In this document: one piece after another, positions 166 to 53,613 of the stretch | Numbering within the stretch: the stretch's first letter is position 1 | Layout of the letters: the number at the start of each line of letters is the position of its first letter | Origin: Thermodesulfobacteriota bacterium | GTDB taxonomy: Bacteria; Desulfobacterota; Desulfobacteria; Desulfobacterales; JARGFK01 | NCBI GenBank assembly: GCA_040757625.1 | Contig: JBFLWU010000007.1 | Coordinates: 1,110 to 65,109, forward strand | Direction of reading: 5' to 3' | DNA: 64,000 bases | Program-made: the position numbers and the translations under genes | The notes under the pieces: generated by a model | Told to the model about the DNA's origin: nothing | Database searches by the model: none | What the model saw: only the letters and a program-made list of their open reading frames with translations

Positions 166-540
166 TCACCTTTTTTTATCAATTTTCTTTTTAAGCGCCA
201 CAATAACTCTATTGATGTCTTTCCAAATGGAATGGATTTGATCGTTTAACTCATTAAGCTTATCATCGCTAAAATATTTTATCCGATTTCCGTATATTAG
301 ATGAGATTTTGTTTCGGAAAGTGATCCTCTGGCATGATAATAAAAATTTAATTTGTCAAGGGTATGTTCCCTTCCAAACGACTCAGCAATATTGGCGGAA
401 ACTGATAATGCGGATCTTCTTATCTGCGAAGTAAGACCAAAATCTTCTGTTTTGGGGAGTTTCTCCGAAAGATCAAATATTCTAACTGCTAGATCCATAG
501 AACTTTTCCAAACCGGCATTTCTTCAAATGACTTATACAT
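166..540 (-). CDS. four-helix-bundle protein (23S rRNA intervening-sequence protein family, PF05635/TIGR02436-like)
   Basis: 124-aa ORF with ATG at 538-540. Family-typical helices are present: FEEMPVWKSSMDLAVRIFDLSEKLPK, QIRRSALSVSANIAESFGR and ARGSLSETKSHL. Confidence 0.85.
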   Translation of the reverse strand: MYKSFEEMPVWKSSMDLAVRIFDLSEKLPKTEDFGLTSQIRRSALSVSANIAESFGREHTLDKLNFYYHARGSLSETKSHLIYGNRIKYFSDDKLNELNDQIHSIWKDINRVIVALKKKIDKKR

Positions 541-645: not shown

Positions 646-2864
646 TACTTATTGACGACTTTCTTAAGCACTTCGCTTTTTAACGTTTCATTGTCTTCGG
701 GCACGATTCCCAGGACCACGGCGTCGTCGGGATGATACTCCCACACCCGTTCCACGGCCTGCTGCCAGCGCCCGGGATTGAGGGCCAGCGAGCGCCGGAA
801 CAGGTCCTGGAATTTTCTGACAGCGGCCCTTTGGGTACGGACAGCCCCGGCAGGGGGCGGCTCGCCGCCATTGGCGTTTTCCGGCAGCATGCCGGCCCGC
901 CAGACCCAGTACCAGGCAATGTTGAAGAGGATGTTGGGATCATTGGGGGAACTTTTAACCGCCTGGTCGAAACAGGCCTCTGCCAGGGGCAGCCAGCGGT
1001 GAACATAATCGTAGGGATCGTAGCTGCGCAGGGAATAGCGCTGACCCAACTCGTACCAGTAGATTTCGCTGGCCGGGTTCAGGCGCACCGCCCCCTCCAG
1101 GGCTGAGATTGCCGCCTCGTTGTATTCGCGCCGCTCCATCTCATGGGCGGATTTTGCCCGCATGTACAGAGCGGCCTTTTTAAAATAATACTCGGCATTG
1201 GCCGGGTTGATTTCGATGGCCCGCTGCACCTCGATGAGCTGGGGGTCCCAGTTCAGGTTCAGGGTGGCGTTCCACTCGGTGGGGGCCTTGACCTCGGCCC
1301 TGAAATGCCGGACGCTGAAGACCATTGCGGCCGCCAGCGCAGCCAGCAGGACCCCCGCCGCAATATGGCGCTGCCGGGCGTTCAGGGCGATTTCCCGGGT
1401 CCGGTAAAAAAAGCGCTCCTTGATGCCGCGCCCCTCACGGTGCAGGACCGCATAGCCCAGGGCCAGGACCGCCGCCAGGGTCAGGGGATTGGCCGGTATG
1501 TGCATGTTCAGTTCGAAATAACTGTGAAAAGCAAGCGCCAGGAGCCCGGCCATCACGCCGGCCCCCACTCCCAGAGCATAGAGATCCCGCCGGTAGCGCC
1601 ACACCCGGATCATCCTGAAAAGAAATAAAATAAAGGCCGCCGCGATCAGGAAGCCGCCGGCCAGGCCCGCCTCGCTCAGGGCCTCGATCCAGTCGTTGTG
1701 GGCGTGACCGCTGGAGGATACCCGGTTGAAATCATCCGGGGAAAAGCGCGGGTATACATGGCGGAAGTTGCCCCAGCCCACCCCGGCCGCTTTATAGGCG
1801 TTCACCATGGGCACGATCGTGCGGGTGATGAACAGGCGCTCCTCCAGCCCCTGCACCTGTTCAAAGCGCTTGAGCGTCCGGTCAATGCCGATATGCACCC
1901 CGTAAAAGAGAGCCAAGACGCAGAACAGGACGGCCAGGCCGCCGTATTTGCGATACCCCTGCTTGCTGAAAAAAATGACGGCGATCCCCAGCATGGCCGC
2001 GCCCATGGCCAGGATGCCGCCCCGGGAGCCCGACATCAGGAGCGCCAAGGTCATCACGACGGCGGCAAAAAAGAAGAAAATCATGCGGGGGCTGGCCGAC
2101 TCCGGCGCGAACAGCCCCACCAGCCGCTGCAGAGCCGCCCGTCCGCCCCCCAGCCCGGAAACGATCCGGCCGCGGCGCCGGCGCTGGGCGATCATGAACC
2201 CGAACAGGAGCAGGACTGCCATCTCGAGATACCCGGCATAGTGGTTGGCCCCGGTAAAGGTGCCGCTGGCCCGTCCGCCGGCCACCGTCGGACTCAGCCA
2301 CCACCACACCCTGGGTTGGGCGCTGAACAGCTGGTAGATTCCGTACAGGGCTTCGAACAGCCCCATAAAAACCAGGACATAGATCAGGATGTCCATCCGC
2401 TTTTTGGAGCGCAGCGTGTTGAGCGTTAAAAAAAACATCCCCAGATAGGTGATCAGCTTAAGCCCCTGGATAATCACCGGGTGAAGAAAATACGCCAACG
2501 GCATCCAGCCGCCGGCCCCTGCGCCTGCCCGGGTGAGCACGTCATTGAGGACCTGCTTGTCCGCAAAGGTCCGGGGCGATAAAAAAGCCGCCCAGGAGGG
2601 CGGCAGCGGGACGAGCTGCAGGCCGATGAAACCGACCAGCAGGAGCAGAAACAGGTTGGCCGGGGTTTTTACCCACGCCGGACCGCCGCTTTTGGAAAAT
2701 ATGAAGCGGTCCAAGACCCACAGGCCCAGCAGGACGAACACCCCCAGCTCCACCAGGGTGTAGGCCCACACGTGCAGGGCGCCGAAGGCCAGCGGCGCAA
2801 AGACCAGCAGGGTGATGATCCCGGCGAAAATGATCCGGTCCGCTTTGCTTTGCTTTGGAATCAT
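645..2864 (-). CDS. O-antigen ligase-like (Wzy_C/WaaL family) polytopic membrane protein with C-terminal TPR-like domain
   Basis: Many TM helices; motifs SGSRGGILAMGAAML and GHAHNDWIEALSEAGLAG are typical of O-antigen ligase family proteins. The C-terminal ~250 aa is repeat-helical (AEYYFKKAALYMRA..., YWYELGQRY...). The ORF track starts at a GTG (2900) inside a repeat; I prefer the ATG at 2864 (MIPKQSK). Confidence 0.75.
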   Translation of the reverse strand: MIPKQSKADRIIFAGIITLLVFAPLAFGALHVWAYTLVELGVFVLLGLWVLDRFIFSKSGGPAWVKTPANLFLLLLVGFIGLQLVPLPPSWAAFLSPRTFADKQVLNDVLTRAGAGAGGWMPLAYFLHPVIIQGLKLITYLGMFFLTLNTLRSKKRMDILIYVLVFMGLFEALYGIYQLFSAQPRVWWWLSPTVAGGRASGTFTGANHYAGYLEMAVLLLFGFMIAQRRRRGRIVSGLGGGRAALQRLVGLFAPESASPRMIFFFFAAVVMTLALLMSGSRGGILAMGAAMLGIAVIFFSKQGYRKYGGLAVLFCVLALFYGVHIGIDRTLKRFEQVQGLEERLFITRTIVPMVNAYKAAGVGWGNFRHVYPRFSPDDFNRVSSSGHAHNDWIEALSEAGLAGGFLIAAAFILFLFRMIRVWRYRRDLYALGVGAGVMAGLLALAFHSYFELNMHIPANPLTLAAVLALGYAVLHREGRGIKERFFYRTREIALNARQRHIAAGVLLAALAAAMVFSVRHFRAEVKAPTEWNATLNLNWDPQLIEVQRAIEINPANAEYYFKKAALYMRAKSAHEMERREYNEAAISALEGAVRLNPASEIYWYELGQRYSLRSYDPYDYVHRWLPLAEACFDQAVKSSPNDPNILFNIAWYWVWRAGMLPENANGGEPPPAGAVRTQRAAVRKFQDLFRRSLALNPGRWQQAVERVWEYHPDDAVVLGIVPEDNETLKSEVLKKVVNK

Positions 2865-2894
2865 AATCTTTTTTTTGACAGGCAAATCATATCT

Positions 2895-3096
2895 CACCAC
2901 AGAGGCACAGAGGCCACGGAGAAGCTTTTCTTTTTGCCCATCGGGAGACGGCGATGGGCAAAAACTGCCTTATTAATCAAAGCATTGACGCCGCATAAGT
3001 TAATAGCAGCTACAGGACGCGTATTTAATCCGAACCGGCATCTCCCGGTTCAGATTAATAGATTCACCTCTCTGTGTCCTCTGTGCCTCTGTGGTG
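2895..3096. repeat. RE-A composite element (two inverted half-units)
   Basis: The left half is CACCACAGAGGCACAGAGGCCACGGAG plus hairpin TTTTGCCCATCG-GGAGACGG-CGATGGGCAAAA. The right half is hairpin (C)TGAACCGG-CATCTC-CCGGTTCAG plus CTCTGTGTCCTCTGTGCCTCTGTGGTG. Confidence 0.85.
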
Positions 3097-3101
3097 AAAA
3101 T

Positions 3102-3296
3102 TCAGTTTGCCAGGCGTTTTATGCCCTCTTTCAGCACATGCACATTAAAAATGATCAACAGGCCATGCTTTATACCGGCAATCTTTAGATAGGTCAGCAG
3201 CTGAGCCTCGTGAATCGGCGATATCTGCTCACAGGCCTTCAGTTCGATATTGGCAACATTTCCAAGCTGAGCAGGATTCTTTTCTTCAGCCGGCAT
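3102..3296 (-). pseudogene. truncated duplicate of the GxxExxY gene (C-terminal ~50 codons only)
   Basis: Positions 3101-3253 are near-identical at the DNA level to 3356-3508, the 3' end of the intact gene. The peptide [40 protein letters not shown] is retained. The N-terminal part is replaced by an RE-A half element. Confidence 0.8.
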
Positions 3297-3350
3297 CTCC
3301 CGACTGAAGAAAATATAATCTATCCTCTGTGTCCTCTGTGCCTCTGTGGT
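3271..3350. repeat. RE-A solo half-unit (CAGCCGG-stem subtype)
   Basis: The unit reads GCAGGATTCTTTTCTTCAGCCGG-CATCTC-CCGACTGAAGAAAA...CCTCTGTGTCCTCTGTGCCTCTGTGGT and ends 6 nt from the GxxExxY stop codon. Confidence 0.85.
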
Positions 3351-3356
3351 AAAAAT

Positions 3357-3740
3357 TCAGTTTGCCAGGCGTTTTATGCCCTCTTTCAGCACAGGCACAT
3401 TAAAATTGATCAACAGGCCATGCTTTATACCGGCAATCTTTAGATAGGTCAGCAGCTGAGCCTCGTGAATCGGCGATATCTGCTCACAGGCCTTCAGTTC
3501 GACAATCAGTTTGTCCGCAACAACCAGGTCCAGCCTGTAGCCGCAATCAACCTTCAAGCCTTTATATTCCACGGGCAACTCTTTTTGGCTGACAAAGGGA
3601 ATTTTTCTTAAATCAAGTTCCAGGCAAAGGCAGCGCTCGTAAGCGTTTTCAAGCAAGCCCGGCCCCAAAATCTTGTGGACTTCAATGGCGGCCCCGATTA
3701 CATCGCCGGTCAATTGGTTAATATCGCTATAGCTTTTCAA
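3357..3740 (-). CDS. GxxExxY protein (PD-(D/E)XK nuclease-fold family, TIGR04256/PF13366-like)
   Basis: 127 aa. GxxExxY motif GLLENAY; PD-(D/E)XK-like core [20 protein letters not shown] start 7 nt from a repeat terminus. Confidence 0.85.
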
Positions 3741-3747
3741 ATATAAT

Positions 3748-4126
3748 CACCACAGAGGCACGGAGAACACAGAGGGTACGCTTGTTTATTCGATCGGGAG
3801 ATGCCGATCGAATAAAAATCTGTCCGCTTATGAAAAATACCCTTAGATTTCCTCAGATCTCGATTATTCTTCTTTCAAATATTCAGGAACCGGATTTTGT
3901 TTATATTAAAACAGGATATGTGTTTTATCTGAACCGGCATCTCCCGGTTTAGACTAATAAATTTATCTCTCTGTGCCTTTGTGGTGAAATTATATTGGGC
4001 TGGTTTAAAGAACGCTTTGGGAATTGACAGTTATCAAGTTTTTCCAGGCAGGATCTTTTCTTCAGCCGGCATCTCCCGGCTGAAGAAAATCATTCTATCC
4101 TCCGTGACCTCTGTGTCTCCGTGGTG
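3748..4126. repeat. RE-A composite unit U1 (paired element 3748-3986 plus solo half 4045-4126)
   Basis: CACCACAGAGGCACGGAGAACACAGAGG plus hairpin TTTATTCGATCGG-GAGATG-CCGATCGAATAAA. Next comes hairpin TTATCTGAACCGG-CATCTC-CCGGTTTAGAC and ...CTCTGTGCCTTTGTGGTG. Then 14-bp stem TTTTCTTCAGCCGG-CATCTC-CCGGCTGAAGAAAA and ...CTCTGTGTCTCCGTGGTG. Confidence 0.85.
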
Positions 4127-4137
4127 AATTTAAGAGC

Positions 4138-4809
4138 CTAAATCGAAAACAGCGCCCTTATCTGCTTCACCAGCTTTAAATCGCTCAGGCTCTTTTGCGG
4201 AACGCCGCCCGCCGCCTTGCAGTACAATAACTCGGACAGGCTGCCCCAGAAGCGAACCATCTCCCGGTGGATCAGCTTGCGCCCGCCGGATGAAATCCAC
4301 AGTTTGCCCCGGTCCGCCGGCGGGCTGTATACCTGCACCTTGACGTTCTGACCCAGCAACTGCGCCTTGCACAAAAACAGGGAACGGGGCAGATGATACA
4401 GGGAGGTCACGAGAATGATGGAGCGAAACTGCCTGTCCTTTATGATTTTCCCGGCATAAAAGGCGTTTTCAAAGGTGGTCCGGGCCTTGTCCTCCTTCAC
4501 GACGGTTACGGTGTCCGGCAGCCCATACCGGCGCCGGTAGTTCGCCAGATGGTAGGAATCGGCCTGGGTGACCACCAGGTTGGGGGCATACCCCCGGCCG
4601 GCCAGGTTATAACCGGCTTCCACCCGTTCCCGGAACCCGTTGAATACAACAATGGCATCGGCGTTCGTGAGGCTGGGTTCTTTTTGAATGACGCGATAAA
4701 AATAAATTCCTTCGATGATGAACAGCAGTACGACCGCCGAAGCCGCGTAGAGGCAATATTTAATGATCTTTTTGGCGAGAGTCATGCGTTTACCGCAGAG
4801 AGGCCTCAC
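4138..4809 (-). CDS. DUF218 / YdcF-ElyC-SanA family protein with N-terminal membrane anchor
   Basis: 223 aa with an N-terminal TM helix. DAIVVFNG...GYAPNLVV...TTFENA...ILVTSLYHLPRS is typical of DUF218. An alternative ATG lies at 4785. Confidence 0.75.
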   Translation of the reverse strand: MRPLCGKRMTLAKKIIKYCLYAASAVVLLFIIEGIYFYRVIQKEPSLTNADAIVVFNGFRERVEAGYNLAGRGYAPNLVVTQADSYHLANYRRRYGLPDTVTVVKEDKARTTFENAFYAGKIIKDRQFRSIILVTSLYHLPRSLFLCKAQLLGQNVKVQVYSPPADRGKLWISSGGRKLIHREMVRFWGSLSELLYCKAAGGVPQKSLSDLKLVKQIRALFSI

Positions 4810-4865
4810 GTACTCAGAGGTGATTCATTTCCTAATCGATGGACAGATTCAGAAAAGTGTTTCTT

Positions 4866-5215
4866 ACCGCAGAGGCACAGAGAACGCAGAGGGTACGCTT
4901 GTTTATTCGATCGGGAGATGCCGATCGAATAAAAGCCCTTTCTCTGGATAGCATACGTTTTAACTGAAACGGAATCTCCCTGCTGATGAAAATCATACTC
5001 CCCTCTGTGCCCTCTGTGCCCTCTGTGCCTCTGTGGTGAAATTATATTGGTTAGATTTAAAGAACGCTCTCGGAGTCCTACGCACTGCATTCCAACACAA
5101 TCTCCTTGAGCTTAACAGGGATGATCAATTTTCAGGCAGGATCTATTTCAACAGCCGGCATCTCCCGGCTGATGAAAATTATTCTCCCCTCTGTGCCCTC
5201 TGTGTCTCTGTGGTG
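4866..5215. repeat. RE-A composite unit U2 (homologous to U1, same orientation)
   Basis: It has the same module order as U1, including GGTGAAATTATATTGG...TTTAAAGAACGCT and CAGGCAGGATCT. The terminal octamer CCCTCTGTG occurs three times at 4991-5038. Confidence 0.85.
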
Positions 5216-5338
5216 CATTACAATTTGGAATGTGGATCAGCGGCCGGAGCCGGTCAGGACCCCGCCGGCGGTTTTGAAAAAAATTTTGAAATCGAGTTAC
5301 AATGACTACTTGTAGCTGGAATTAGCAATGTAAATTTG

Positions 5339-6949: not shown

Positions 6950-7723
6950 CTAAATATTGGCGGGTTTATCAATGAATTGAGAGATTTTACGTAACGGTTT
7001 AAATATAAATGTCCAAGGATAAGGTTGAAGATTATTCACATTCCATGCCAGTTTGTCATTGCGGTTAGCCCTGTAACGATTCATAAAAGATGCATTGCTC
7101 TTTCCGCCCGTGCGCATCTTTACCAGCACTTTTGGAATATAAGCAGTTGAAATCATATTTTTCAACAAAAAACGAAGCATCAATTCATAATCCGCAGCTG
7201 ACCCCAGATCTAAATTGAAAAGGCCATATTTTTCATAAACGTTTCGTCTAACAAAAAAAGTCGGATGAGGAGGCATCCAGCCCCAATAAAATCGCTTCGC
7301 ATCATAATCCCCTGCCCTCCAGTAACGGACTGCTCGGTCTGTATTCTCCGGATCGACATAAACTAGGTCGCCGTAACAGGAATCGATCGATGGATCTTCA
7401 AACACCCCAGCCACACTTTCCAGAACATTCGGCGTGGGGTAAAAGTCATCGGCATTTAGTATGCCAATCACATTGCCTGACGCCATCGTAATGCCCTTGT
7501 TCATAGCGTCATATATACCCCCATCTGGTTCTGAAATAACCCGGTCGAAACAGTTTCTAAATTTTTCTAGTATGACAAGCGTTCCGTCTGTGGATGCGCC
7601 ATCAACAACGATGTGCTCTATTTCCCCCGCAGGATAAGACTGATTTTGCACACTTTCGATACAATTGCCAATCGTAAAGGCAGCATCTCGAACAACGGTA
7701 ATAATTGAAAACAATGCATTCAA
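6950..7723 (-). CDS. glycosyltransferase family 2
   Basis: 257 aa with a GT-A N-terminus (FSIITVVRDAAFTIGNCIESVQNQSYP...HIVVDGASTDGT) and NADDFY (DxD-like). Confidence 0.85.
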   Translation of the reverse strand: MNALFSIITVVRDAAFTIGNCIESVQNQSYPAGEIEHIVVDGASTDGTLVILEKFRNCFDRVISEPDGGIYDAMNKGITMASGNVIGILNADDFYPTPNVLESVAGVFEDPSIDSCYGDLVYVDPENTDRAVRYWRAGDYDAKRFYWGWMPPHPTFFVRRNVYEKYGLFNLDLGSAADYELMLRFLLKNMISTAYIPKVLVKMRTGGKSNASFMNRYRANRNDKLAWNVNNLQPYPWTFIFKPLRKISQFIDKPANI

Positions 7724-7726
7724 TCT

Positions 7727-8557
7727 TTAAAAAGGCAATCCCTTTTGTCGCTGACTGTTCTCTTGAAGTTTAAGATCAATCATCTTTTCATAGATAAAAC
7801 GCAGGTAGCTGTAGGTCAACCCTGGCCTTCCATCCAGAAAGCCGAGTCGAAAAAAATAGAGGTAAAAAAAGACTGCCAGCGGTCGCCCCGGCAGCTTATA
7901 AGCAAGCTGCTTCATACTTCTGCGCCGGATAGCTGGGTCATTTGAAAGCAGTTCACGGGCATTAAACCTATGCCGGGATTCTCCAGCAAGCAGAGCTGCC
8001 TCCATGCTAGAATATCGGTTATGTCGTTCGAACCAGTGATCAATGCCCTTATTGAAGGGATAATGAATCAAATGCTCCTGAAGATAACCAACGTGCCCAT
8101 CAGTATGATACTCCTCATTGATCTCCCTTAGTACCCTGACACGACCCTTACGAATCAACCGCCCAAACCAGGTAGGATACCCGCTGCTTCGACGAAGCCA
8201 TCTTCCCATAAACATGTCTTTGCGGCGGACACGAAGCAACGAAGTCTCATCGTCAACCCCACAGAATTTATTTTCAATCTCGATCTGCAATTCAGGTGAA
8301 ACACGCTCATCAGCATCCAACATCAGTATCCAATCATGTTTATAACTAACCTCATTGAGCGATGCATTTCTCTGCGCTGCATAATTATCAAACCTGCGCT
8401 GCACAACCTTTGCCCCAGCTGTTTTGGCGATTTCAACCGTGCGATCTGTGCTATAAGAGTCAAACACAACCATGTCATCACACCATTTAACTGAATCCAG
8501 GCAATCACTGAGGTTCACCTCCTCGTTGAGCGTTAGAATTACTATGGAAACGGTCAT
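7727..8557 (-). CDS. glycosyltransferase family 2
   Basis: 276 aa with VSIVILTLNEEVNLSDCLDSV...VVFDSYSTDRTVEIA and LMLDADERV (DxD). Confidence 0.8.
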   Translation of the reverse strand: MTVSIVILTLNEEVNLSDCLDSVKWCDDMVVFDSYSTDRTVEIAKTAGAKVVQRRFDNYAAQRNASLNEVSYKHDWILMLDADERVSPELQIEIENKFCGVDDETSLLRVRRKDMFMGRWLRRSSGYPTWFGRLIRKGRVRVLREINEEYHTDGHVGYLQEHLIHYPFNKGIDHWFERHNRYSSMEAALLAGESRHRFNARELLSNDPAIRRRSMKQLAYKLPGRPLAVFFYLYFFRLGFLDGRPGLTYSYLRFIYEKMIDLKLQENSQRQKGLPF

Positions 8558-9209: not shown

Positions 9210-10958
9210 CTAAATATCATTTTTATTTATTACAAAGTTCCCAAGGCACAACACATCCATATCTGTCCTCAAGAAACAATCCATCGCCTGTTCAGGTGTA
9301 TCTACAATCGGCTCATTCTCATTGAAGCTCGTATTCAGTAAAACCCCCACCCCGGTTTTTCTTCGAAAAGTTTCTATAAGGTCATAGTACCGAGCATTTT
9401 CCTGACGCTTCACGGATTGTAGACGTCCGGTACCGTCGACATGGGTGACAGCCTGCAGCTTCGAGCGCCATTCTGGCCGGATTTTCACCACATGCATCAT
9501 AAAAGGGCTTTCAACATTTTGTTCAAAATACTCGCCCACATATTCTTTTAACACGCTTGGAGCAAAAGGACGAAAAGACTCCCGCCTTTTTATTTTTGAA
9601 TTAATTGTATCTTTCATGTCGGGCAGCATGGGATTAGCCAATATCGAACGGTTACCTAGCGCTCTCGGCCCCCACTCACTTCGGCCCTGATACCAGCCCA
9701 CGACCATACCTTTAACAAGATAATCGACAACTTTGTCCAAAAGGGATTCATCGTCATAATATTCCAACGGCAACCCACAGCTTTCTGCAACCTTTTTCAG
9801 GTGACTTTCAGAATATTCCGGCCCCCAAAACGGATGTGTCATCTGAAAGCGTTTGTTTTGACCAAGTATATGATGCCAGCAATAATAAGCCGCACCAATA
9901 CAAGTGCCATCATCAGATGCGGCACATTGAATATACTGGTTAGCAAAAGGGGTATCTCGTAAGATCCTTGCATTGGTAACGCCATTTAAGGAGCAACCTC
10001 CGGCCATAACAAGTTTTTCCGTAGGGATTTCCTGATGAAGGTGATTCAGGCAATGAATCGCCACATCTTCAAACCTGATCTGGCAAGACTTTGCGATATC
10101 CATCTCACGCTTTTCAATAGGGTTTTTCCGATTTCGAGGCTTACCCAGACGTTTTTCCAGAAGCTTTGTATATAAACGGCCCATAATGATTCTATTGTTG
10201 CCATCGAGCGCACCGCTTTCACCGCCTTCATGCATGCCAAAAAATCGGGTATTTAATTTAAACCATCCATTGGATTCTGAACGGATCAGTTCATTCATTA
10301 GTTCATGGTAGTTATCTTCGCCATATGGAGCCAATCCCATGACCTTGTATTCTTCACCATATTCATCAAATCCAATAAATTGGCACAAAGCAGTGTAAAA
10401 GAAACCGAGACTGTGCGGCAGATGAACCCTATCTATTATTTCAATTCGATTACCCTCGCATCTTGCAGCCATTAGGCTTACGAAATCTCCTGAGGCGTCA
10501 TATGAAAATCCTGCGGTAATCGAATCGAATGGTGAAAGATAATATGCGCTGGCGATATGCGCTAGGTGGTGTTCAATATTTACTGTCTCAAAATGCGCTC
10601 TATCAGGATCGATATCACAAATCTCAGCCAACCTTTCGATCATGTTTTTTGTCTTTACATTTCGCTGTAAATGCTCAACTACAGCTCCGGCTGACTTTAT
10701 AGGGTTTCTTAGTACATATGCGGCCTTGGCTAAACGGTTTGATCTGGCAGCCCTAGCGATAGCGACATGCGTTATATCTTCAAGTGATATGCCTGAAATT
10801 TTAATCACCCTTCTTATGGCATTTTCAGGGAATCTTGGGGAATGCTTCAGTCTCTCTCCCAACCGTTCTTCGGAAATTGCTGATTGCAGCACGCCATCAA
10901 CTACCAAGCATGCTGCCGAGTCCGCATGAAAAGCATTGATCCCTAAAATGACGGCCAA
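9210..10958 (-). CDS. carbamoyltransferase (NodU/CmcH family)
   Basis: 582 aa. N-terminal ILGINAFHADSAACLVVDG and C-terminal LLNTSFNENEPIV are typical of NodU-type O-carbamoyltransferases. Confidence 0.85.
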   Translation of the reverse strand: MAVILGINAFHADSAACLVVDGVLQSAISEERLGERLKHSPRFPENAIRRVIKISGISLEDITHVAIARAARSNRLAKAAYVLRNPIKSAGAVVEHLQRNVKTKNMIERLAEICDIDPDRAHFETVNIEHHLAHIASAYYLSPFDSITAGFSYDASGDFVSLMAARCEGNRIEIIDRVHLPHSLGFFYTALCQFIGFDEYGEEYKVMGLAPYGEDNYHELMNELIRSESNGWFKLNTRFFGMHEGGESGALDGNNRIIMGRLYTKLLEKRLGKPRNRKNPIEKREMDIAKSCQIRFEDVAIHCLNHLHQEIPTEKLVMAGGCSLNGVTNARILRDTPFANQYIQCAASDDGTCIGAAYYCWHHILGQNKRFQMTHPFWGPEYSESHLKKVAESCGLPLEYYDDESLLDKVVDYLVKGMVVGWYQGRSEWGPRALGNRSILANPMLPDMKDTINSKIKRRESFRPFAPSVLKEYVGEYFEQNVESPFMMHVVKIRPEWRSKLQAVTHVDGTGRLQSVKRQENARYYDLIETFRRKTGVGVLLNTSFNENEPIVDTPEQAMDCFLRTDMDVLCLGNFVINKNDI

Positions 10959-31504: not shown

Positions 31505-31787
31505 ATCTTTTAAACATCCAGCGTCGAAGGATAATCCCCATTCGAAGTAATTTTTTTTTAACAGAGTAATTTCAAAAAGTTATGGTTTCCCCCAATAGTT
31601 TAACGGGACGTCGGTGAAGAGAATGCACGGCGAAAAAAGCTGTTAAGCTGATAAAAGAAAACAGGTTAAGATTGAAATGCGGCTGACGGCGCAGGGCGCA
31701 CGGCTCACGGTGCAAAAACAGGGGAAGGCCAAGTACATATTTTCATAAATACGGTTATCTCATTGCCCGTTCGCTGCACTCATTCGA

Positions 31788-32272
31788 GACACAGAGGTCA
31801 CGGAGAAACCTTTCTTTTTGCCCATCGGGAGATGACGATGCATGAAAAAGCCTGAGCCTTCGGTATACTTTTTAGGTTCTTCTCCCAACTAGTTGGGAGA
31901 AAGGATTCCAGGATTCAAGGGGTCCAGGGGCCAAGTGTTTGTTTTCAATCAGTTATTAAATTCCAAGTGCATTTTTCGTCATTATTGCAACAAAAAAAAC
32001 TAAAGGATTTGAAATTCAAGAGCATTTCACTTGAACCCTTGAATCCTCGGCCCCTTGAACCCTTGGGATTCATGTCCAACATTCTTAAAGATGATTTTAC
32101 TCATTTTGCAGAATTAACTACAACTAATCCGGAGATGATACACTTTTTATTATCACCGCATAGACACCGTGTATGCTTATGCGACAAGCGGATATGTGTT
32201 TTTATCTGAACCGGCATCTCCCGGTTCAGATAAACTGATTCACCCCTCTGTGCCCTCTGTGGCTCTGTGGTG
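31788..32272. repeat. RE-A composite element with nested inverted word arms
   Basis: The left half is GACACAGAGGTCACGGAG plus a degenerate hairpin. The interior has palindrome TTCTCCCAAC-TA-GTTGGGAGAA (31879-31900) and CAAGGGG/CCCCTTG word arms (31901-31936 versus 32028-32071). The right half is TTATCTGAACCGG-CATCTC-CCGGTTCAGATAA plus CCCTCTGTGCCCTCTGTGGCTCTGTGGTG. Confidence 0.8.
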
Positions 32273-32433
32273 AAAAACACGTTAGGATATTTCCAAAACA
32301 GAGCATTAAGTATATAGATTTAAAAGAAACAAGTGCAGCGTCTTTATACAGCTCCGCCTTCTGAGTTCCATGAGCAAACCCGGCTTAATATACCAACATT
32401 ATTATATATTTTTAATTAAAATGGAGTTGATGC

Positions 32434-32820: not shown

Positions 32821-33118
32821 GACATGAACACTTAAAATAATTAGGGGGTTATGTCAAGGAAAATAAGGCTGAAGGTTGAAGACTCAAGGCCGAAGGAGGA
32901 GTGAACTAATTGCTGATAAGCTGTTAAGCCATAAGGGCCGAGGGTCTAGGACTGAGTTACGAATAAAAGATGATAAAAACACGGCTTACGGCGTACGGCA
33001 AAGGGCAAATGATAAGCTGTTGAGCTGATGAGCCGGTAAGCAAATGGTTCAGGGCTCACAGCTCAGGCCGAATGAAACATGTAAAAAAGCAAGAAAGCTT
33101 GGAGGCTTTAAGGGATTG

Positions 33119-33325
33119 TATTGAACCGCAGAGACGCAAAGGTCGCCGAGTTTCTTATTGTTGCTTTTCGTTGAGAGGACGAAAAGCAAGCAGCTGAAAG
33201 CTCTTTTCATTGCCGGCCCCTCACCGGCAATGAAAATGAATCTTTCTTTGCGTTCTCTGCGTCTCGAGCGAAGCGGGCGGTGAACAAACCAAGGCGCCTC
33301 ACTTGTTACACCTGTCTCCCACCCT
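33119..33325 (+). repeat. RE-B element, long variant
   Basis: AACCGCAGAGACGCAAAGG, then hairpin TTGCTTTTCGT-TGAGAGG-ACGAAAAGCAA, the AGCTGAAAGC box and hairpin CATTGCCGG-CCCCTCA-CCGGCAATG. It ends with ...GCGTCTCGAGCGAAGCGGGCGGTGAA plus a CCTGTCTCCCACCCTTCC tail. Confidence 0.85.
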
Positions 33326-34290: not shown

Positions 34291-34862
34291 ATTGCACCGC
34301 AAAGGCGCAAAGTTAGCAAAGATCATTTTCCTGTTGCTTTTCGCTGAGAAGGCGAAAAGCAATCGTCAACGCCCTTTCAGGGATATAAATTCCCACTGTC
34401 GAGCAAACACCCCTGATCAGAGAACGTGTTTGTTTAATAAAGCTGAAAGCTTTTTCCTTTGGCGTCCTCTCAACGGCAAAGGAAATTTCTTGGCGCCCTC
34501 AGCGTCTCGATCGCAGCGGGCGGTTGATTTCATGCTCTTCTTCAAAGCACTAGTTGGACCAGTATATCCATAGAACCGGCACCGCAAAGGCGCAAAGTTA
34601 GCAAAGATTATTTTCCTGTTGCTTTTCGCTGAGAAGGCGAAAAGCAAACGTCAACGCCCTTTCAGGGATATAAATTCCCACTGTCGAGCAAATGCACCTA
34701 ATACGAACATGTCCGTTTAATAAAGCTGAAAGCTTTTTCCTTTGGCGACCTCTCACCGGCAAAAGAAATTTCTTGGCGCCCTCTGCGTCCTGAGACTATC
34801 GAGCGGTTGATTTCATGCTCTTCTTCAAAACACCGGTTGGAACAGTATATCCATAGAACCGG
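34291..34862 (+). repeat. tandem duplication (periods 285 and 283 bp) of an expanded RE-B element
   Basis: CACCGCAAAGGCGCAAAGTT starts recur at 34295, 34580 and 34863. Each unit has hairpin TTGCTTTTCGC-TGAGAAG-GCGAAAAGCAA, a roughly 90-bp centre and a second hairpin of the type CCTTTGGCG(T)-CCTCTCA-(A)CGGCAAAGG. The array begins 14 nt upstream of the argF ATG. Confidence 0.9.
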
Positions 34863-35435
34863 CACCGCAAAGGCGCAAAGTTGGCAAAGATCATTTTCCT
34901 GTTGCTTTTCGCTGAGAAGGCGAAAAGCGAACATGATCACTTTATAACTTCAGAATCTTCAGGAAGTTCACGTACAACCCTAACGATTCCTTCCCGCATG
35001 AGCGCTACGTTAAAATTTAACAATAATCCCAACTGAAGACCGGACAATTTTAAATAGGTTAATAATTGGGCTTTATGAATCGGTTCGATTTCATTTACCG
35101 ATTTTAATTCAACAATTATTTGATCTTCAACAATGACATCCAACCGGTAACTACAGTCCAGTTTAATACCTTTATACTCAACAAATAACGGTTCCTGCCG
35201 TTTAAATTTTATACCCTTGAGGCTAAACTCACAGCAAAGACATTCCTCATACGTTGATTCAAGCAAACCGGGGCCAAGGTACTTATGAACTTCTATCGCC
35301 GACCCTATTATTTTATTGCTTAATTGATTGATATCCATTGTCAAGTCAATCGACAAGTTGAAAAGCTTTTTCCTTGACGGCCGCTCACCGTCAAGGAAAA
35401 AAATATTTCTCAGCGTCCTCGGCGCCTTTGCGGTG
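34863..35435 (+). mobile_element. RE-B element carrying a GxxExxY gene as cargo (candidate autonomous copy)
   Basis: Perfect 14-bp inverted termini, CACCGCAAAGGCGC (34863-34876) and GCGCCTTTGCGGTG (35422-35435). Hairpin 1 lies at 34904-34928. Hairpin 2, TTTTTCCTTGACGG-CCGCTCA-CCGTCAAGGAAAAA, lies at 35367-35401. Only the GxxExxY ORF lies between them. Mobility is an inference. Confidence 0.6.
34937..35356 (-). CDS. GxxExxY protein (PD-(D/E)XK nuclease-fold family)
   Basis: GLLESTY motif and [17 protein letters not shown] core. It is a paralogue of 3357-3740. The start is TTG 35356 or ATG 35338 (MDINQL). Confidence 0.85.
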
Positions 35436-35440
35436 AACCA

Positions 35441-37662: not shown

Positions 37663-37747
37663 GTTTTTTCCTTAAAATACTGTCTGTCTTTTTACTGTTG
37701 CTGGTTGCTTATTCCCACCTCAAAACGTTGCGGTAACAAGAACGATT

Positions 37748-37863
37748 GGACCGCAGAGACGCAAAGGTCGCAGGGTTTCTTATGGTTGCTTTTCGTTGAG
37801 AGGACGAAAAGCAAGCAGCTGAAAGCCCTTTTCATTGCGTTCTCAGCGTCTTTGCGGTGAAAT
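37748..37863 (+). repeat. RE-B element, short copy lacking hairpin 2
   Basis: GACCGCAGAGACGCAAAGG, hairpin 1 and AGCTGAAAGCCCTTTTCATTGC, joined directly to GTTCTCAGCGTCTTTGCGGTGAA. It lies in the argB-hslU spacer. Confidence 0.85.
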
Positions 37864-39293: not shown

Positions 39294-39357
39294 GATGTTC
39301 GCAGATCTTCACATATTATGGATTTGATGTTTCCTTATATTAAAAGCTTTTGGTTCC

Positions 39358-39513
39358 CACCGCAGAGGCGCAGAGGGCGCAAAGATTATTTTTTCTGTTG
39401 CCTTCTGCTGAGAGGCCGGAAGGCAAACAGGTAAAAGCTTTTTCATTGCCGGCCGCTCACCGGCAATGAAAAATACTATTTACCTCTGCGTTCTCAGCGC
39501 CTTTGCGGTTAAT
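39358..39513 (+). repeat. RE-B element
   Basis: CACCGCAGAGGCGCAGAGGGCGCAAAG, hairpin TTGCCTTC(T)G-CTGAGAGG-C(C)GGAAGGCAA and hairpin CATTGCCGG-CCGCTCA-CCGGCAATG, ending in CTCTGCGTTCTCAGCGCCTTTGCGGT. It lies in the hslU-hslV spacer. Confidence 0.85.
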
Positions 39514-40127: not shown

Positions 40128-40412
40128 ATTTTGTCCGTTGTCTGTTGTACGCTGTCCATCGCCTCGCCGATCTCAAAAATAATTGAACCGCAGAGGCGCA
40201 AAGGTCGCCGAGTTTCTTCTTATGGTTGCTTTTCGTTGAGAGGACGAAAAGCAAGCAGCTGAAAGCCCTTTTCATTGCCGGCCTCTCACCGGCTATGAAA
40301 ATGAATCTTTCTTTGCGTTCTCTGCGTCTCGAGCGAAGCGGGCGGTGAACAAACCAAGGCGCCTCACTTGTCACACCTGTCTCCCGCCCTTCCCGCCTTA
40401 AGCCGTTAGCCT
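40128..40412 (+). repeat. RE-B element, long variant
   Basis: Near-identical to 53113-53388, including the left extension ...CGCCTCGCCGATCTCAAAAATAATTGAACC and the right tail ...CCTGTCTCCCGCCCTTCCCGCCTTAAGCCGTTAGCC. It lies in the hslV-xerC spacer. Confidence 0.85.
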
Positions 40413-40670
40413 TGCGCCGTGAGCCTTCTCTGCCTACTCCCTCCTTTTTCTCAACCTCAAAGCTGGCCTTTCGCCTTTTGCCGCTGATAAGCTGTTGAGC
40501 TGTTCAGGCTTGCAGGCTGAAGGCTGAAGGTTATATCAGTGCCGAGTGACAAAGAACAGAATATTTTGGAGAGATCTTAATATAAACTGTCCCTTGCCAT
40601 AGTCCTTGATCCCGTCTGTTGTTACCTTCAGTCTTTAGTCTATTTACCTTCAGCCTTTCTTTCCGATCCC

Positions 40671-42212: not shown

Positions 42213-42431
42213 ATCCGGTTCCGTATCGGTTAAAATCTTTTCCTTAATTTACAGATAATAAGCTGTTAAACGATCAAGAACCGGCGCAAGATACTCGGCC
42301 CATGGCAGGCTAAGGTTCAGGTTAAGGTTTAGTCCCACTCTCAACCTCAACCTCAGCCTCAACTTTTTTTTCTGGCCCCCCGCTTTCTTTGCTGCCTACC
42401 GCTTATTGTCTACTGCTTAGTTTTCCCTGGC

Positions 42432-42610
42432 CGCGCCGATCTTAAAAATAATTGAACCGCAGAGGCGCAAAGGTCGCCGAGTTTCTTCTTATGGTTGCTT
42501 TTCGTTGAGAGGACGAAAAGCAAGCAGCTGAAAGCCCTTTTCATTGCCGGCCTCTCACCGGCAATGAAAATGAATCTTTCTTTGCGTTCTCAGCGTCTTT
42601 GCGGTGAAAT
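42432..42610 (+). repeat. RE-B element, canonical short form
   Basis: Terminus at 42456-42473, hairpin 1 at 42495-42523 (loop TGAGAGG), hairpin 2 at 42538-42570 (loop CCTCTCA), and right terminus ...GTTCTCAGCGTCTTTGCGGTGAA ending at 42608. Confidence 0.9.
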
Positions 42611-43131: not shown

Positions 43132-43403
43132 TTTTGTTGTAAACGCCCCACAACCATAACGGCCGGGGCATGTTTTTGAATGCCACTAAATGACGGACTT
43201 GTCAATATGAGACCTTTGCATCACACCCCCTTTCGCTCAATTTCGGCCTCAGGCTCAAATTTTAATCCTCGAAATACACCCGGTATTCCTGTGGTAAAAA
43301 TTTTCGCCTTCCTTGAGCTTGAACGAAATTTGGCGTTTCTCAAAGGCCTCAATCACGCAAGTACCCGCTTCAAGGCGCATGGCAGGAAAAGGCTGCTGTT
43401 GAA

Positions 43404-43510
43404 GAGCTGATAAGCTGTTAAGCTGTTAAGCTTTCTCAACCTCAGCATCAACCTTTATTTATTTCTGCCTACTGCCTACTGCTTACTCCCTACTCCCCAC
43501 TTTTTCCCAA
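43404..43510 (+). repeat. RE-D word-mosaic repeat
   Basis: GAGCTGATAAGCTGTTAAGCTGTTAAGCTTTCTCAACCTCAGCATCAACCTTTATTTATTTCTGCCTACTGCCTACTGCTTACTCCCTACTCC... Partial copies start at about 46185 and 50281, and an inverted copy lies at 56361-56470. Confidence 0.8.
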
Positions 43511-43588
43511 CCTCAGCCTCAACCTTAACCTGCCGTAGGCCTTGGCCGTGCGCCGCTTATTTCAACCCGCAATCCGCAACCTGCTCCC

Positions 43589-46014: not shown

Positions 46015-46358
46015 GGCATATAGACTGAAGACTGAAGACCGAAGACTGAAGGCTAAAGGCATACGACACACGGCACATAAAAGCTGTTGAGCTGATAAGC
46101 TGTTAAGTAAACGGCTAACGGCTCACGGCGCAGGGCGGACGGTAAAGAAACAGGGCTGAGGGCAAAGGACTGAATAACGAATAAGAGCTGATAAGCTGTT
46201 TAGCATTCTCAACCTCAACCTTTTTCTTCAGCCGCGCGCCGTTTGCCGTGTGCCGTTTATTTATTTATTTCTTAGCCTTAGCCTCACCCTTAACCTCATC
46301 CTTTTATTATTGCCGACTGTCTGCCAACCTTCAGCCTTCAGCCCATTTACCTTCGGCC
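46015..46358. repeat. word-array mosaic forming a ~330-bp imperfect palindrome
   Basis: The left side has CTGAAG x4, GGCTAAAGG and ACGGCTCACGGCGCAGGGC. The right side has GCGCGCCGTTTGCCGTGTGCCGT, CCTTAGCC x2 and CTTCAGCC x2, in nested inverted order around position ~46205. Confidence 0.7.
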
Positions 46359-47136: not shown

Positions 47137-47365
47137 ATTCACCGCAAAGACGCTAAGCACGCAAAGATTGTTTACGGTTGCTTTCCGCTGAGACGCCGGA
47201 AAGCAACTGACAGTCATCCTCCGAAAATGCAGACTGCTTCCAACCGAAATCGATTTTCGTGGTTAACAAAGCTGAACGTTTTTCCTTTGCCGCTCTCTCA
47301 ACGGCAAAGGAAATGAACATCCTTTTCTCTGCGACCTTTGCGCCTTGAGCTAAGCGGGCGGTGGG
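47137..47365 (+). repeat. RE-B element, expanded-centre variant
   Basis: TTCACCGCAAAGACGCTAAGCACGCAAAG, hairpin GTTGCTTTCCG-CTGAGACGC-CGGAAAGCAAC, a roughly 80-bp centre and hairpin TTTTTCCTTTGCCG-CTCTCTCA-ACGGCAAAGGAAA. It ends with ...CCTTTGCGCCTTGAGCTAAGCGGGCGGTG. It lies in the UDG-coaBC spacer. Confidence 0.8.
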
Positions 47366-50224: not shown

Positions 50225-50355
50225 GGCATACAACGCACGGCCGGTAAAGGTTGAGGTTAAGGTTAAGGTTAAGAAGCCGTTGAGCTGATAAGCTGTTAAG
50301 CTTTCTCAACCTCGGCCTCATCCTTAACCTCATCCTTTTATTATTGCCTACTGCT
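50225..50355 (+). repeat. word-array / RE-D partial copy
   Basis: AAGGTTGAGGTTAAGGTTAAGGTTAAG, then TTGAGCTGATAAGCTGTTAAGCTTTCTCAACCTCGGCCTCATCCTTAACCTCATCC...TGCCTACTGCTTAC. It abuts the murJ stop codon. Confidence 0.75.
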
Positions 50356-53112: not shown

Positions 53113-53388
53113 GGTTACTTGTTGTCCGTTGTTCATTGCCTCGCCGATCTCAAAAATAATTGAACCGCAGAGGCGCAAAGGTCGCCGAGTTTCTTATGGT
53201 TGCTTTTCGTTGAGAGGACGAAAAGCAAGCAGCTGAAAGCCCTTTTCATTGCCGGCCTCTCACCGGCGATGAAAATAAATCTTTCTTTGCGTTCTCTGCG
53301 TCTCAAGCGAAGCGGGCGGTGAACAAACCAAGGCGCCTCACTTGTCACACCTGTCTTCCGCCCTTCCCGCATTAAGCCGTCAGCCTTT
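53113..53388 (+). repeat. RE-B element, long variant
   Basis: See 40128-40412. It lies in the leuS-lptE spacer. Confidence 0.85.
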
Positions 53389-53613
53389 TTCTGTCAACTG
53401 CTTACCCCCTACTGCTTACTCTCTGCCTACTTTTTTCCAACCTCAGCCTTAACCTTAATCTGTTCTTTGCCGTTTGCCCTGCGCCGCAAGCCGTGCGCCT
53501 TTATTGTCTACTCCCTACTTTTTCTCTACCTCAACCTCGCCTCAACCTTCTACCTATTATATTATATCTTCCCCTGCGTCTTAACCCGTTAGCCGTTCGC
53601 CGTAAGCCGGCAC

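Follow-up and report, generated by a model that had tools for sequence, protein, structure and literature searches.

The described systems that come closest to the element reported here are repetitive extragenic palindromic (REP) sequences with their inverted doublets (REPINs) and REP-associated tyrosine transposases (RAYTs), bacterial interspersed mosaic elements (BIMEs), the intervening sequences (IVSs) of 23S rRNA, the miniature transposable elements with inverted repeats known as MITEs, such as Correia/NEMIS, ERIC and Chunjie, and homing endonuclease genes. Homing endonuclease genes may be free-standing or intron-borne, and they include the PD-(D/E)XK type I-Ssp6803I. We analyzed a 64,000-nt stretch of contig JBFLWU010000007.1 from a Thermodesulfobacteriota bacterium (the whole stretch is referred to below as the window), in which a gene for a GxxExxY (PDDEXK_3) protein lies between inverted repeat arms at 34861–35437. 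Gene-less copies of the same repeat, here called RE-B, are scattered in the window, and together with the arm-bounded gene they point to a widespread, apparently undescribed selfish DNA element.

As in REP/REPIN-RAYT systems and BIMEs, one small nuclease gene is flanked by inverted, hairpin-containing copies of a repeat, tandem arrays of doublets occur (here in Desulfosarcina variabilis), and there is no target-site duplication. With these systems the locus also shares the dispersal of the repeat as gene-less inverted doublets in intergenic spacers and the presence of a cognate family for each paralogue, these being RE-B for paralogue 1 (nine gene-less copies) and RE-A for paralogue 2 in the 64-kb window. 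It differs in that the enzyme belongs to the PD-(D/E)XK superfamily (PF13366) and not to the HUH/Y1 transposase fold, in that the hairpin is accompanied by an arm of ~27 nt built of three octamers, with no GTAG tetranucleotide, and in that the GxxExxY unit occurs in phyla of both bacteria and archaea, with indications of horizontal transfer.

The IVSs of 23S rRNA (S23p/23S_rRNA_IVP; Leptospira, Coxiella) resemble the element in their inverted arms of tandem heptamers or octamers, in an optional open reading frame (ORF) of ~120–130 aa, so that versions with and without the ORF exist, and in a sporadic distribution suggesting horizontal transfer; moreover, PF05635 genes in the genomes that we studied share the layout. 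23S_rRNA_IVP genes have also been seen wedged among cas genes (PMC3936711) and in rRNA insertions of bacteria of the candidate phyla radiation (PMC11270868). Unlike IVSs, the GxxExxY elements lie in mRNA spacers and not in rRNA, their ORF encodes a nuclease and not a four-helix bundle, the RE-B lineage carries, in addition, inner hairpins whose loop is conserved, and the statistics favour constraint at the DNA level. With MITEs the element shares copies of 115–220 bp with terminal inverted repeats (TIRs) in intergenic and operon spacers, variable size, nesting, polymorphism between relatives and probable co-transcription with neighbouring genes, whereas a dedicated protein-coding version with a protein in no known transposase family, the tandem-octamer arms and the lack of any detected target-site duplication set it apart. 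Homing endonuclease genes are similar in being small selfish nuclease genes, present or absent between conserved boundaries (here in the argD–argF spacer), in the PD-(D/E)XK superfamily and in the absence of target-site duplication; here, however, the invaded ‘allele’ would be a dispersed repeat and not a unique gene, and the flanking homology is the repeat itself.

The gene-bearing element consists of two inverted half-sites, each with an arm, a spacer and a hairpin, around a central slot; coordinates are collected in Table 1. The arms are ~27 nt long and contain three tandem octamers, the 14-nt termini being their outer part, and the right arm begins 4–5 nt past the argD stop codon. The stem of hairpin 2 (35367–35401) is 14 bp long, and its loop CCGCTCA reads TGAGCGG on the other strand. 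This loop is the reverse-complement counterpart of the hairpin 1 type of loop, which gives the element two-fold symmetry. In the window, 16 occurrences of the terminus motif ACCGCARAGRCGC were counted, compared with 0.37 expected by chance. The sole ORF between the hairpins is 34937–35356 on the minus strand, and the NCBI annotation calls the same product, of 133 aa, from the ATG at 35338. The original prediction, made from the sequence of this stretch, had described the termini, both hairpins, the box and the sole ORF of 34863–35435, and all of them were present at the positions that it gave. Within a family of small palindromic repeats, whose slot may be almost empty, may be filled with a short unrelated stretch or may contain a single GxxExxY gene, the 573-bp segment is the gene-bearing member. 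Its position is between argD and argF and not in a 23S rRNA helix; a scan of the window for tRNAs gave no match, and one against Rfam matched no family, rRNA included.

A covariance model of the half-element (arm and hairpin) was used to scan the window and the fetched comparison loci (designated by L-numbers). In the window it found 20 RE-B halves, which form exactly ten plus/minus pairs, nine of them gene-less (115–220 bp) and one gene-bearing. The predicted recurrence of the module without a gene was thus confirmed by nine copies, although the predicted starts at 40128, 42432 and 53113 had taken in extra shared flank outside the element proper. RE-B occupies the xerC–hslV, hslV–hslU, hslU–argB and argD–argF spacers and the spacer downstream of argF; the host genes, all on the minus strand, are xerC, hslV, hslU, argB, argD, argF and a MarR-like gene. 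Unlinked gene-less copies are 85–94% identical to each other over 216 nt (the copy at 33122 is 94% identical over that length to the copy at 53159 and 85% identical to that at 40185). The tandem copies at 34293–34511 and 34578–34794 are 95% identical to each other, and the half comprising their arm and hairpin 1 is 94–97% identical to that of the gene-bearing copy. A test of whether their ~85-nt centre is a deletion remnant of the gene gave no convincing similarity outside the two end modules, so such an origin is not supported.

Several right arms contain an insertion of CGAGCGAAGCGGG. An arm variant with ~13–16 nt (CCCGCTTCGCTCGAG) between CACCG and the first octamer recurs across genomes; in the window it is found at 33243–33282, 40308–40347, 47324–47363 and 53282–53321, and it is also present in L040, L024 and L060.

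The 133-aa protein matched PF13366 (E = 2.3e-43, 147.7 bits, cut-off 22) and TIGR04256 (E = 3.1e-45, 153.3 bits, cut-off 35). Its only other Pfam match was a sub-threshold one to Cas4, and it matched neither 23S_rRNA_IVP (PF05635) nor the HUH/Y1 RAYT family. The motif G24xxE27xxY30 and the catalytic residues D67, E77 and K79 are intact, and G24, E27, Y30, D67, E77, K79 and Q91 are invariant across 31 homologues. An AlphaFold2 model (predicted local distance difference test score, pLDDT, 90.4) predicted a minimal PD-(D/E)XK core resembling that of Cas4 and lambda exonuclease, and a Foldseek search with the model returned only distant matches to Cas4 and lambda-type exonucleases (TM ~0.45). A sequence search of the PDB gave no solved relative, and a scan of viral contigs gave no close relative. 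Since PADLOC and PHROGs searches yielded weak Cas4-like matches only, with no defence-system model fitting GxxExxY, we find no tie to a known defence system. The GC content of the gene is ~37%, compared with ~60% in the flanking genes.

The protein family is large, with 22,733 representatives at 50%-identity clustering in the library searched, and a survey of the PD-(D/E)XK superfamily lists GxxExxY/PDDEXK_3 as ‘Unknown’, with ‘multiple transfers’ (PMC3424549). The top-scoring library matches (P0241–P0251 and others) are proteins of 260–295 aa with two tandem GxxExxY domains, and this fusion suggests that the working unit may be dimeric.

We fetched 80 loci encoding relatives of the protein (53–76% identity), 76 of which were testable for flanking repeats. 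Their hosts were bacteria (Desulfobacterota, Nitrospira, Planctomycetes, Acidobacteria, Bacteroidales, Verrucomicrobia, Gammaproteobacteria and WOR-3) and archaea (Methanoperedens, Methanosarcinales and Methanothrix). For every gene, its upstream 250 nt were aligned with its downstream 250 nt in reverse complement, and 375 random positions in the same loci served as controls. The results showed that flanking inverted arms scored above the 99th percentile of the controls in 61 of the 76 loci, with a median score of 21.25 for the genes and 8.5 for the controls. The arms nearly always read (T)TCACC followed by three tandem units of the types CGCAGAG, CGCAAAG, CACAGAG, CACGGAG, CACAAAG or CACAGAT, and a consensus of NACC-RC-RRAG x3 (‘CACC + three tandem CRCRRAG octamers’) holds from Desulfobacterota to Methanoperedens, Planctomycetes and Bacteroidales. 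CACC was outermost in the nearest arms at 47 loci and innermost at 6, the orientation being mixed at 7. The expectation that GxxExxY paralogues elsewhere would be flanked by RE-B-type modules was therefore upheld at the 61 loci, and the topology that had been proposed was the commonest (47 vs 6).

In minimal versions, found in archaea and several bacteria, the arms touch the ATG and the stop codon and the whole unit is ~430 bp long; inner TGAGAGG hairpins are kept in the Desulfobacterota relatives. The class of arm tracks the clade of the protein and not the host, even within one genome: the paralogue 1 clade has GCAGAG/GCAAAG arms and TGAGAGG loops, the paralogue 2 clade has ACAGAG/ACGGAG arms, and further paralogues in L002, L030 and L073 each have a CAC-type arm motif of their own. 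Judged from these sequences, gene and arms travel as a unit across bacteria and archaea.

To see which genes occupy such positions, every ATG-initiated ORF of 70–450 aa in the loci and the window was tested for flanking inverted repeats. Beyond the target genes, this screen returned three PF13366 genes, five PF05635 genes and a few host genes lying merely between neighbouring elements. The genes bounded by GxxExxY-type arms across ~1.2 Mb were almost only GxxExxY and included no transposase gene; the window and 90 loci likewise showed no larger unit of this kind with a transposase. The arms of the PF05635 genes are tandem oligomers as well, of varied sequence, and RE-B represents one lineage within a far broader class, in which 23S_rRNA_IVP genes are carried too. 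A HEPN gene was found between arm-like motifs once, in L053.

Orthologous loci were recovered via argD homologues. In L082–84 (argD 82% identity, same gene order) the spacers were short and element-free at all five sites compared, with no covariance-model match, and the argD–argF spacer measured ~100 bp compared with 1,121 bp in the window. In L081, L086 and L087 (87% identity) the argD–argF spacer holds a single gene-less element with an unrelated interior, whereas L089 and L090 carry an orthologous GxxExxY gene (84% identity) in the order complete gene-less element, 60 nt, gene, and hairpin 1 with arm. The outer boundaries, 4–5 nt after the argD stop codon and ~27 nt before the argF start, are common to the window and to L081, L086, L087 and L089/L090, so at one site and between kept boundaries the gene is present in the window and L089/L090 and absent from L081, L086 and L087. 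In L088 an element of the L081 type occupies the argB–argD spacer, which is empty in the window. The chromosome of Desulfosarcina variabilis (L024) contains two arrays of six to seven tandem gene-less elements of ~125 bp, at 6964–7842 and 9248–9991, upstream of a GxxExxY gene; the units are 83–90% identical, and each has the variant arm with CCCGCTTCGCTCGAG. The spacer differences and the arrays together show that copies come and go, multiply in tandem and replace one another between boundaries that stay fixed.

The original prediction had proposed a mobile or recombination-propagated family and had looked to relatives for differences in the presence of copies and for target-site duplications. 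The first were found, copies not being fixed at orthologous sites: spacers are empty in L082–84, and interiors or arrangements differ in the other relatives. Target-site duplications were not: across 51 loci there was no excess of direct repeats at offsets of 0–8 and lengths of 2–6, a weak negative given that the exact ends are uncertain, and none was visible at the ten window copies. The proposal as such was supported, as both tests that we ran of it, the flanking of other paralogues by the repeat and the variation at orthologous sites, came out in its favour.

Our favoured explanation is that the nuclease and a repeat family of its own form a pair working at the DNA level, in the manner of REPIN/RAYT or of a homing endonuclease, and we regard it as evenly poised between right and wrong. 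GxxExxY would be a minimal PD-(D/E)XK nuclease, probably acting as a dimer, and would recognize and cut the octamer arms and/or the hairpins, as structures extruded from, or exposed in, single-stranded DNA. Repair and recombination at the cuts would copy the gene into gene-less copies, as in homing, and would also duplicate, disperse and reshuffle the gene-less copies, by analogy with RAYT and REP/REPIN. Self-cutting with recombination between copies would explain the linkage of gene and arms and the match between arm class and protein clade, as well as the replacement of interiors, the tandem arrays, the permuted arrangements and the absence of target duplications.

Several observations weigh against the pairing of nuclease and repeat. 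The strongest is that non-nuclease PF05635 genes occupy like cassettes, so the cargo need not be a mobility enzyme. The nearest non-orthologous homologue of the protein is only ~76–78% identical, and there is thus no sign of a recent burst of the gene. The placement of the gene inside the element, which had been predicted for the 573-bp segment and holds there, is not shared by every locus: the second paralogue of the window, abutted by the outer ends of RE-A arms, lies between gene-less elements and not inside one, and in Desulfosarcina variabilis and D. widdelii the gene is likewise placed tightly between elements. Neither a target-site duplication nor a defined cleavage point was found in the loci searched. 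Hairpin 2 resembles a bidirectional terminator, its copies being flagged as terminator-like on both strands, with weak and interrupted T-tracts (hairpin 1 was not flagged), and the arms could close a stem of ~14–20 bp in a transcript, a structure of the type that RNase III cleaves in rRNA IVSs (PMC4990558). It also counts against this explanation that the binding or cutting of arms or hairpins by the protein, and the spread thereby driven, is a step that we infer.

A function in RNA, comparable to that of an rRNA IVS or of a Correia element, is possible and in our estimate rather unlikely: the element would be co-transcribed, RNase III would cut the arm stem and the insert would leave the host transcript, while the GxxExxY gene would be carried along as a passenger, its ribosome-binding site perhaps concealed by the stem, and spread at the DNA level would follow an unrelated route. 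The layout does match that of 23S rRNA IVSs. The Coxiella IVS has, at its 5' end and ahead of the S23p ORF, the heptamer GACAGAT three times in tandem, with RNase III cleaving at the first copy; how IVSs originate and move is still unexplained (PMC4990558). RNase III also cuts the TIRs of Correia elements (PMC10969869). The 23S_rRNA_IVP genes in the loci and in the window have inverted arms of tandem oligomers, the elements lie in spacers of co-directional genes, and the 579-nt sense RNA is predicted to be closed by the arms (z −5.3). Furthermore, the arms contain the Shine-Dalgarno-like motifs GAGG, GGAG and AAGG, which in minimal versions abut the ATG.

The details of base pairing did not bear out selection on an RNA stem. 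Arm mismatches that would allow G:U pairing were as frequent on the sense as on the antisense strand (116 vs 116), with no wobble bias. Both arms fit the motif conserved across phyla, and their likeness to one another is only moderately above their likeness to the arms of other elements; past the outer ~14–20 nt, paired arms are often poorly complementary. The stems of 35 distinct hairpins, in the selection of which the outer six pairs were left out, are 97.6% Watson-Crick with ~1% G:U, and compensatory changes occur at 12 of the 12 stem pairs. The lack of G:U bias, the phylum-wide arm motif and the strict covariation of the hairpins favour constraint at the DNA level over an RNA stem, and an RNA-level function would also leave the match of arm class and protein clade, and the arrival of elements at new sites, without explanation. 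Such strictly paired palindromes, whose conserved asymmetric loop keeps one orientation to the arm, fit what would be expected of hairpins or cruciforms read by a protein. Folding itself is good for DNA and RNA alike: as single-stranded DNA, the 159-nt copy at 39356 folds with a free energy (dG) of −48.4 kcal/mol (z −8) into an arm-closed stem with two inner hairpins. The RNA-level function and a nuclease acting on its repeat at the DNA level are compatible with each other and not mutually exclusive.

We consider it improbable that the gene-less copies are MITEs of the ordinary sort, which a conventional transposase encoded elsewhere in the genome would mobilize in trans or host recombination would spread, with GxxExxY a captured passenger that has an unrelated cellular role. 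These copies are indeed MITE-like in their TIRs, their size, their intergenic position and their polymorphism between relatives, the central slot takes unrelated filler and even a nested palindromic element, and the HEPN gene of L053 provides one case of a different gene between arm-like motifs. A random passenger, however, would not keep its linkage to the arms, with tight junctions, across domains of life; it further counts against this reading that the arm-bounded genes are almost only GxxExxY, that no transposase gene with these termini is seen in the window and 90 loci, and that the 51 loci show no target-site duplication. Static terminators or insulators that arose in place, next to which the gene would lie by coincidence, are highly improbable, and the comparison of loci led us to reject both terminators of a simple kind and an association by chance: hairpin 2 is terminator-like and the elements do lie between genes of conserved operons, but hairpin 1 has no T-tract, orthologous spacers differ in whether an element is present, unlinked copies are 85–94% identical and the gene is bordered by the same arms at 61 of 76 loci, whose hosts belong to unrelated phyla.

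The pairing of the nuclease with its repeat can be extended to the proposal that the GxxExxY elements form a new class among autonomous mobile or homing elements and are the smallest known (~430–580 bp), in which a gene for a ~125-aa nuclease lies between three-octamer arms, self-cutting drives the spread of gene and gene-less copies, and ORF-bearing 23S rRNA IVSs belong to the same super-class. We hold this wider proposal tentatively and think it doubtful in full. No account of an association between GxxExxY and a repeat was found in the full-text literature, subscription journals and database family notes being outside its coverage, and a 2024 review of prokaryotic MITEs does not mention a GxxExxY link. 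We rate the finding as fitting among nuclease-plus-repeat systems and IVS-like cassettes and not as categorically new.

GxxExxY/PDDEXK_3 is a very large family without known function, and the CACC-octamer arms and, in the RE-B lineage, the TGAGAGG hairpins give it a constant candidate partner among nucleic acids that can be put to the test; the system is present in Desulfosarcina variabilis Montpellier (NZ_CP159846) and D. widdelii PP31 (NZ_AP021875), both of them cultured and with complete genomes. Should the nuclease prove to act on its repeats, the lifestyle of REPIN/RAYT would have been invented a second time, independently and with an enzyme of another fold, and there would be a concrete hypothesis for the spread of rRNA intervening sequences and of many ‘orphan’ MITE-like repeats. 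The elements also remodel operon spacers, that between argD and argF having ~100 bp in one relative and 1.1 kb in the window.

Table 1. Positions in the 64,000-nt window of the parts of the gene-bearing element, the gene-less RE-B copies and related features.
Feature	Position	Strand	Sequence	Remarks
GxxExxY / PDDEXK_3 gene, 133 aa	34937..35338	-		ATG at 35338, stop 34937-34939
Left terminus	34863-34876		CACCGCAAAGGCGC	Perfect 14-nt inverted match to right terminus
Right terminus	35422-35435		GCGCCTTTGCGGTG	Exact reverse complement of CACCGCAAAGGCGC, 100%
Left arm	34861..34889	+	GGCACCGCAAAGGCGCAAAGTTGGCAAAG	CACC + 3 tandem octamers; at 3' side of gene
Right arm	35409..35437	-	TTCACCGCAAAGGCGCCGAGGACGCTGAG (minus-strand reading)	At 5' side of gene
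Hairpin 1	34904..34928	+	GCTTTTCGC-TGAGAAG-GCGAAAAGC	9-bp stem; class of TGAGAGG-loop palindromes
Box + hairpin 2	35360..35401	+	AAAAGCTTTTTCC (box)	Box and hairpin inside right arm
RE-B gene-less copy	33122-33272	.		Downstream of argF
RE-B gene-less copies, tandem pair	34293-34511 + 34578-34794	.		~85-nt centre each, ~55-nt linker in common
RE-B short gene-less copy	37747-37861	.		hslU-argB spacer; hairpin 2 mostly missing
RE-B minimal gene-less copy	39356-39512	.		hslV-hslU spacer
RE-B gene-less copy	40184-40337	.		xerC-hslV spacer
RE-B gene-less copy	42453-42608	.		
RE-B gene-less copy	47138-47349	.		~70-nt centre, differs from others
RE-B gene-less copy	53161-53311	.		
Second GxxExxY paralogue	3357..3740	-		61% identical to first; between complete RE-A copies
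RE-A cluster	2893..5217	.		Complete elements 2893-3098, 3746-3988, 4863-5040
RE-A solo halves	3280-3353, 4056-4128, 5145-5217			
23S_rRNA_IVP / Avd-like four-helix-bundle gene (PF05635)	166-540	-		Flanks 100-165 and 575-650

RE-A, which accompanies the second paralogue, is a sister family with the same grammar as RE-B; its arms are CACCACAGAGG and the loop of its hairpins is GGAGATG. The last ~48 codons of the second GxxExxY gene are present again, as a duplicated 3' fragment, at 3102–3248. The partial tandem duplication of which it is part (3062–3353) holds the gene end together with the adjoining arm and hairpin, showing that the arm and the 3' end of the gene were duplicated jointly in a single piece. 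A further RE-A copy at 31783–32274 has a centre of ~350 nt, in which another palindromic element is nested, with the arms GGATTCAAGGGGTCCAGGGG (~31905–31935) and CCTTGAATCCTCGGCCCCTTGAACC (~32030–32075); no ORF of a known family was seen in this copy.

The PF05635 gene at 166–540 lies between inverted arms of a third octamer type, GGTTGAGG/GGCTAAGG, in a cassette with the grammar of the GxxExxY elements. More families of tandem octamers were seen in the spacers, often as inverted pairs, among them GCTGATAA/GCTGTTGA, CTCAACCT/CTCAGCCT, CCTACTGCTTACT and GGCTGAAG/CTTCAGCC. The extra octamer sites are at 32912–33040, 40483–40515, 43398–43438, 46075–46211, 50268–50308, 42321–42372, 43493–43532 and 53423–53550, and motifs related to these families were found in the relatives L085 and L088.

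Metagenome contigs often end in or near arms (the L088 contig, at 4239–4276, stops within an arm just after argD), and many homologues are on contigs of <2 kb, which suggests that the arms break metagenome assemblies. The arms also yield spurious ORFs with translations such as TTEPQRAQRGE and LTAEAQRTQR (‘TAEAQRAQR’-type), at 32101–32280 (minus strand), 2812–2976 (plus) and 4839–4967 (plus), and arm-derived ORFs are likely to be a source of false gene calls and N-terminal extensions. The region ~5300–31750 of the window is AT-rich (GC 0.29–0.40, compared with 0.55–0.65 at 33–56 kb) with co-directional genes on the minus strand, and it is probably a horizontally acquired biosynthetic island.

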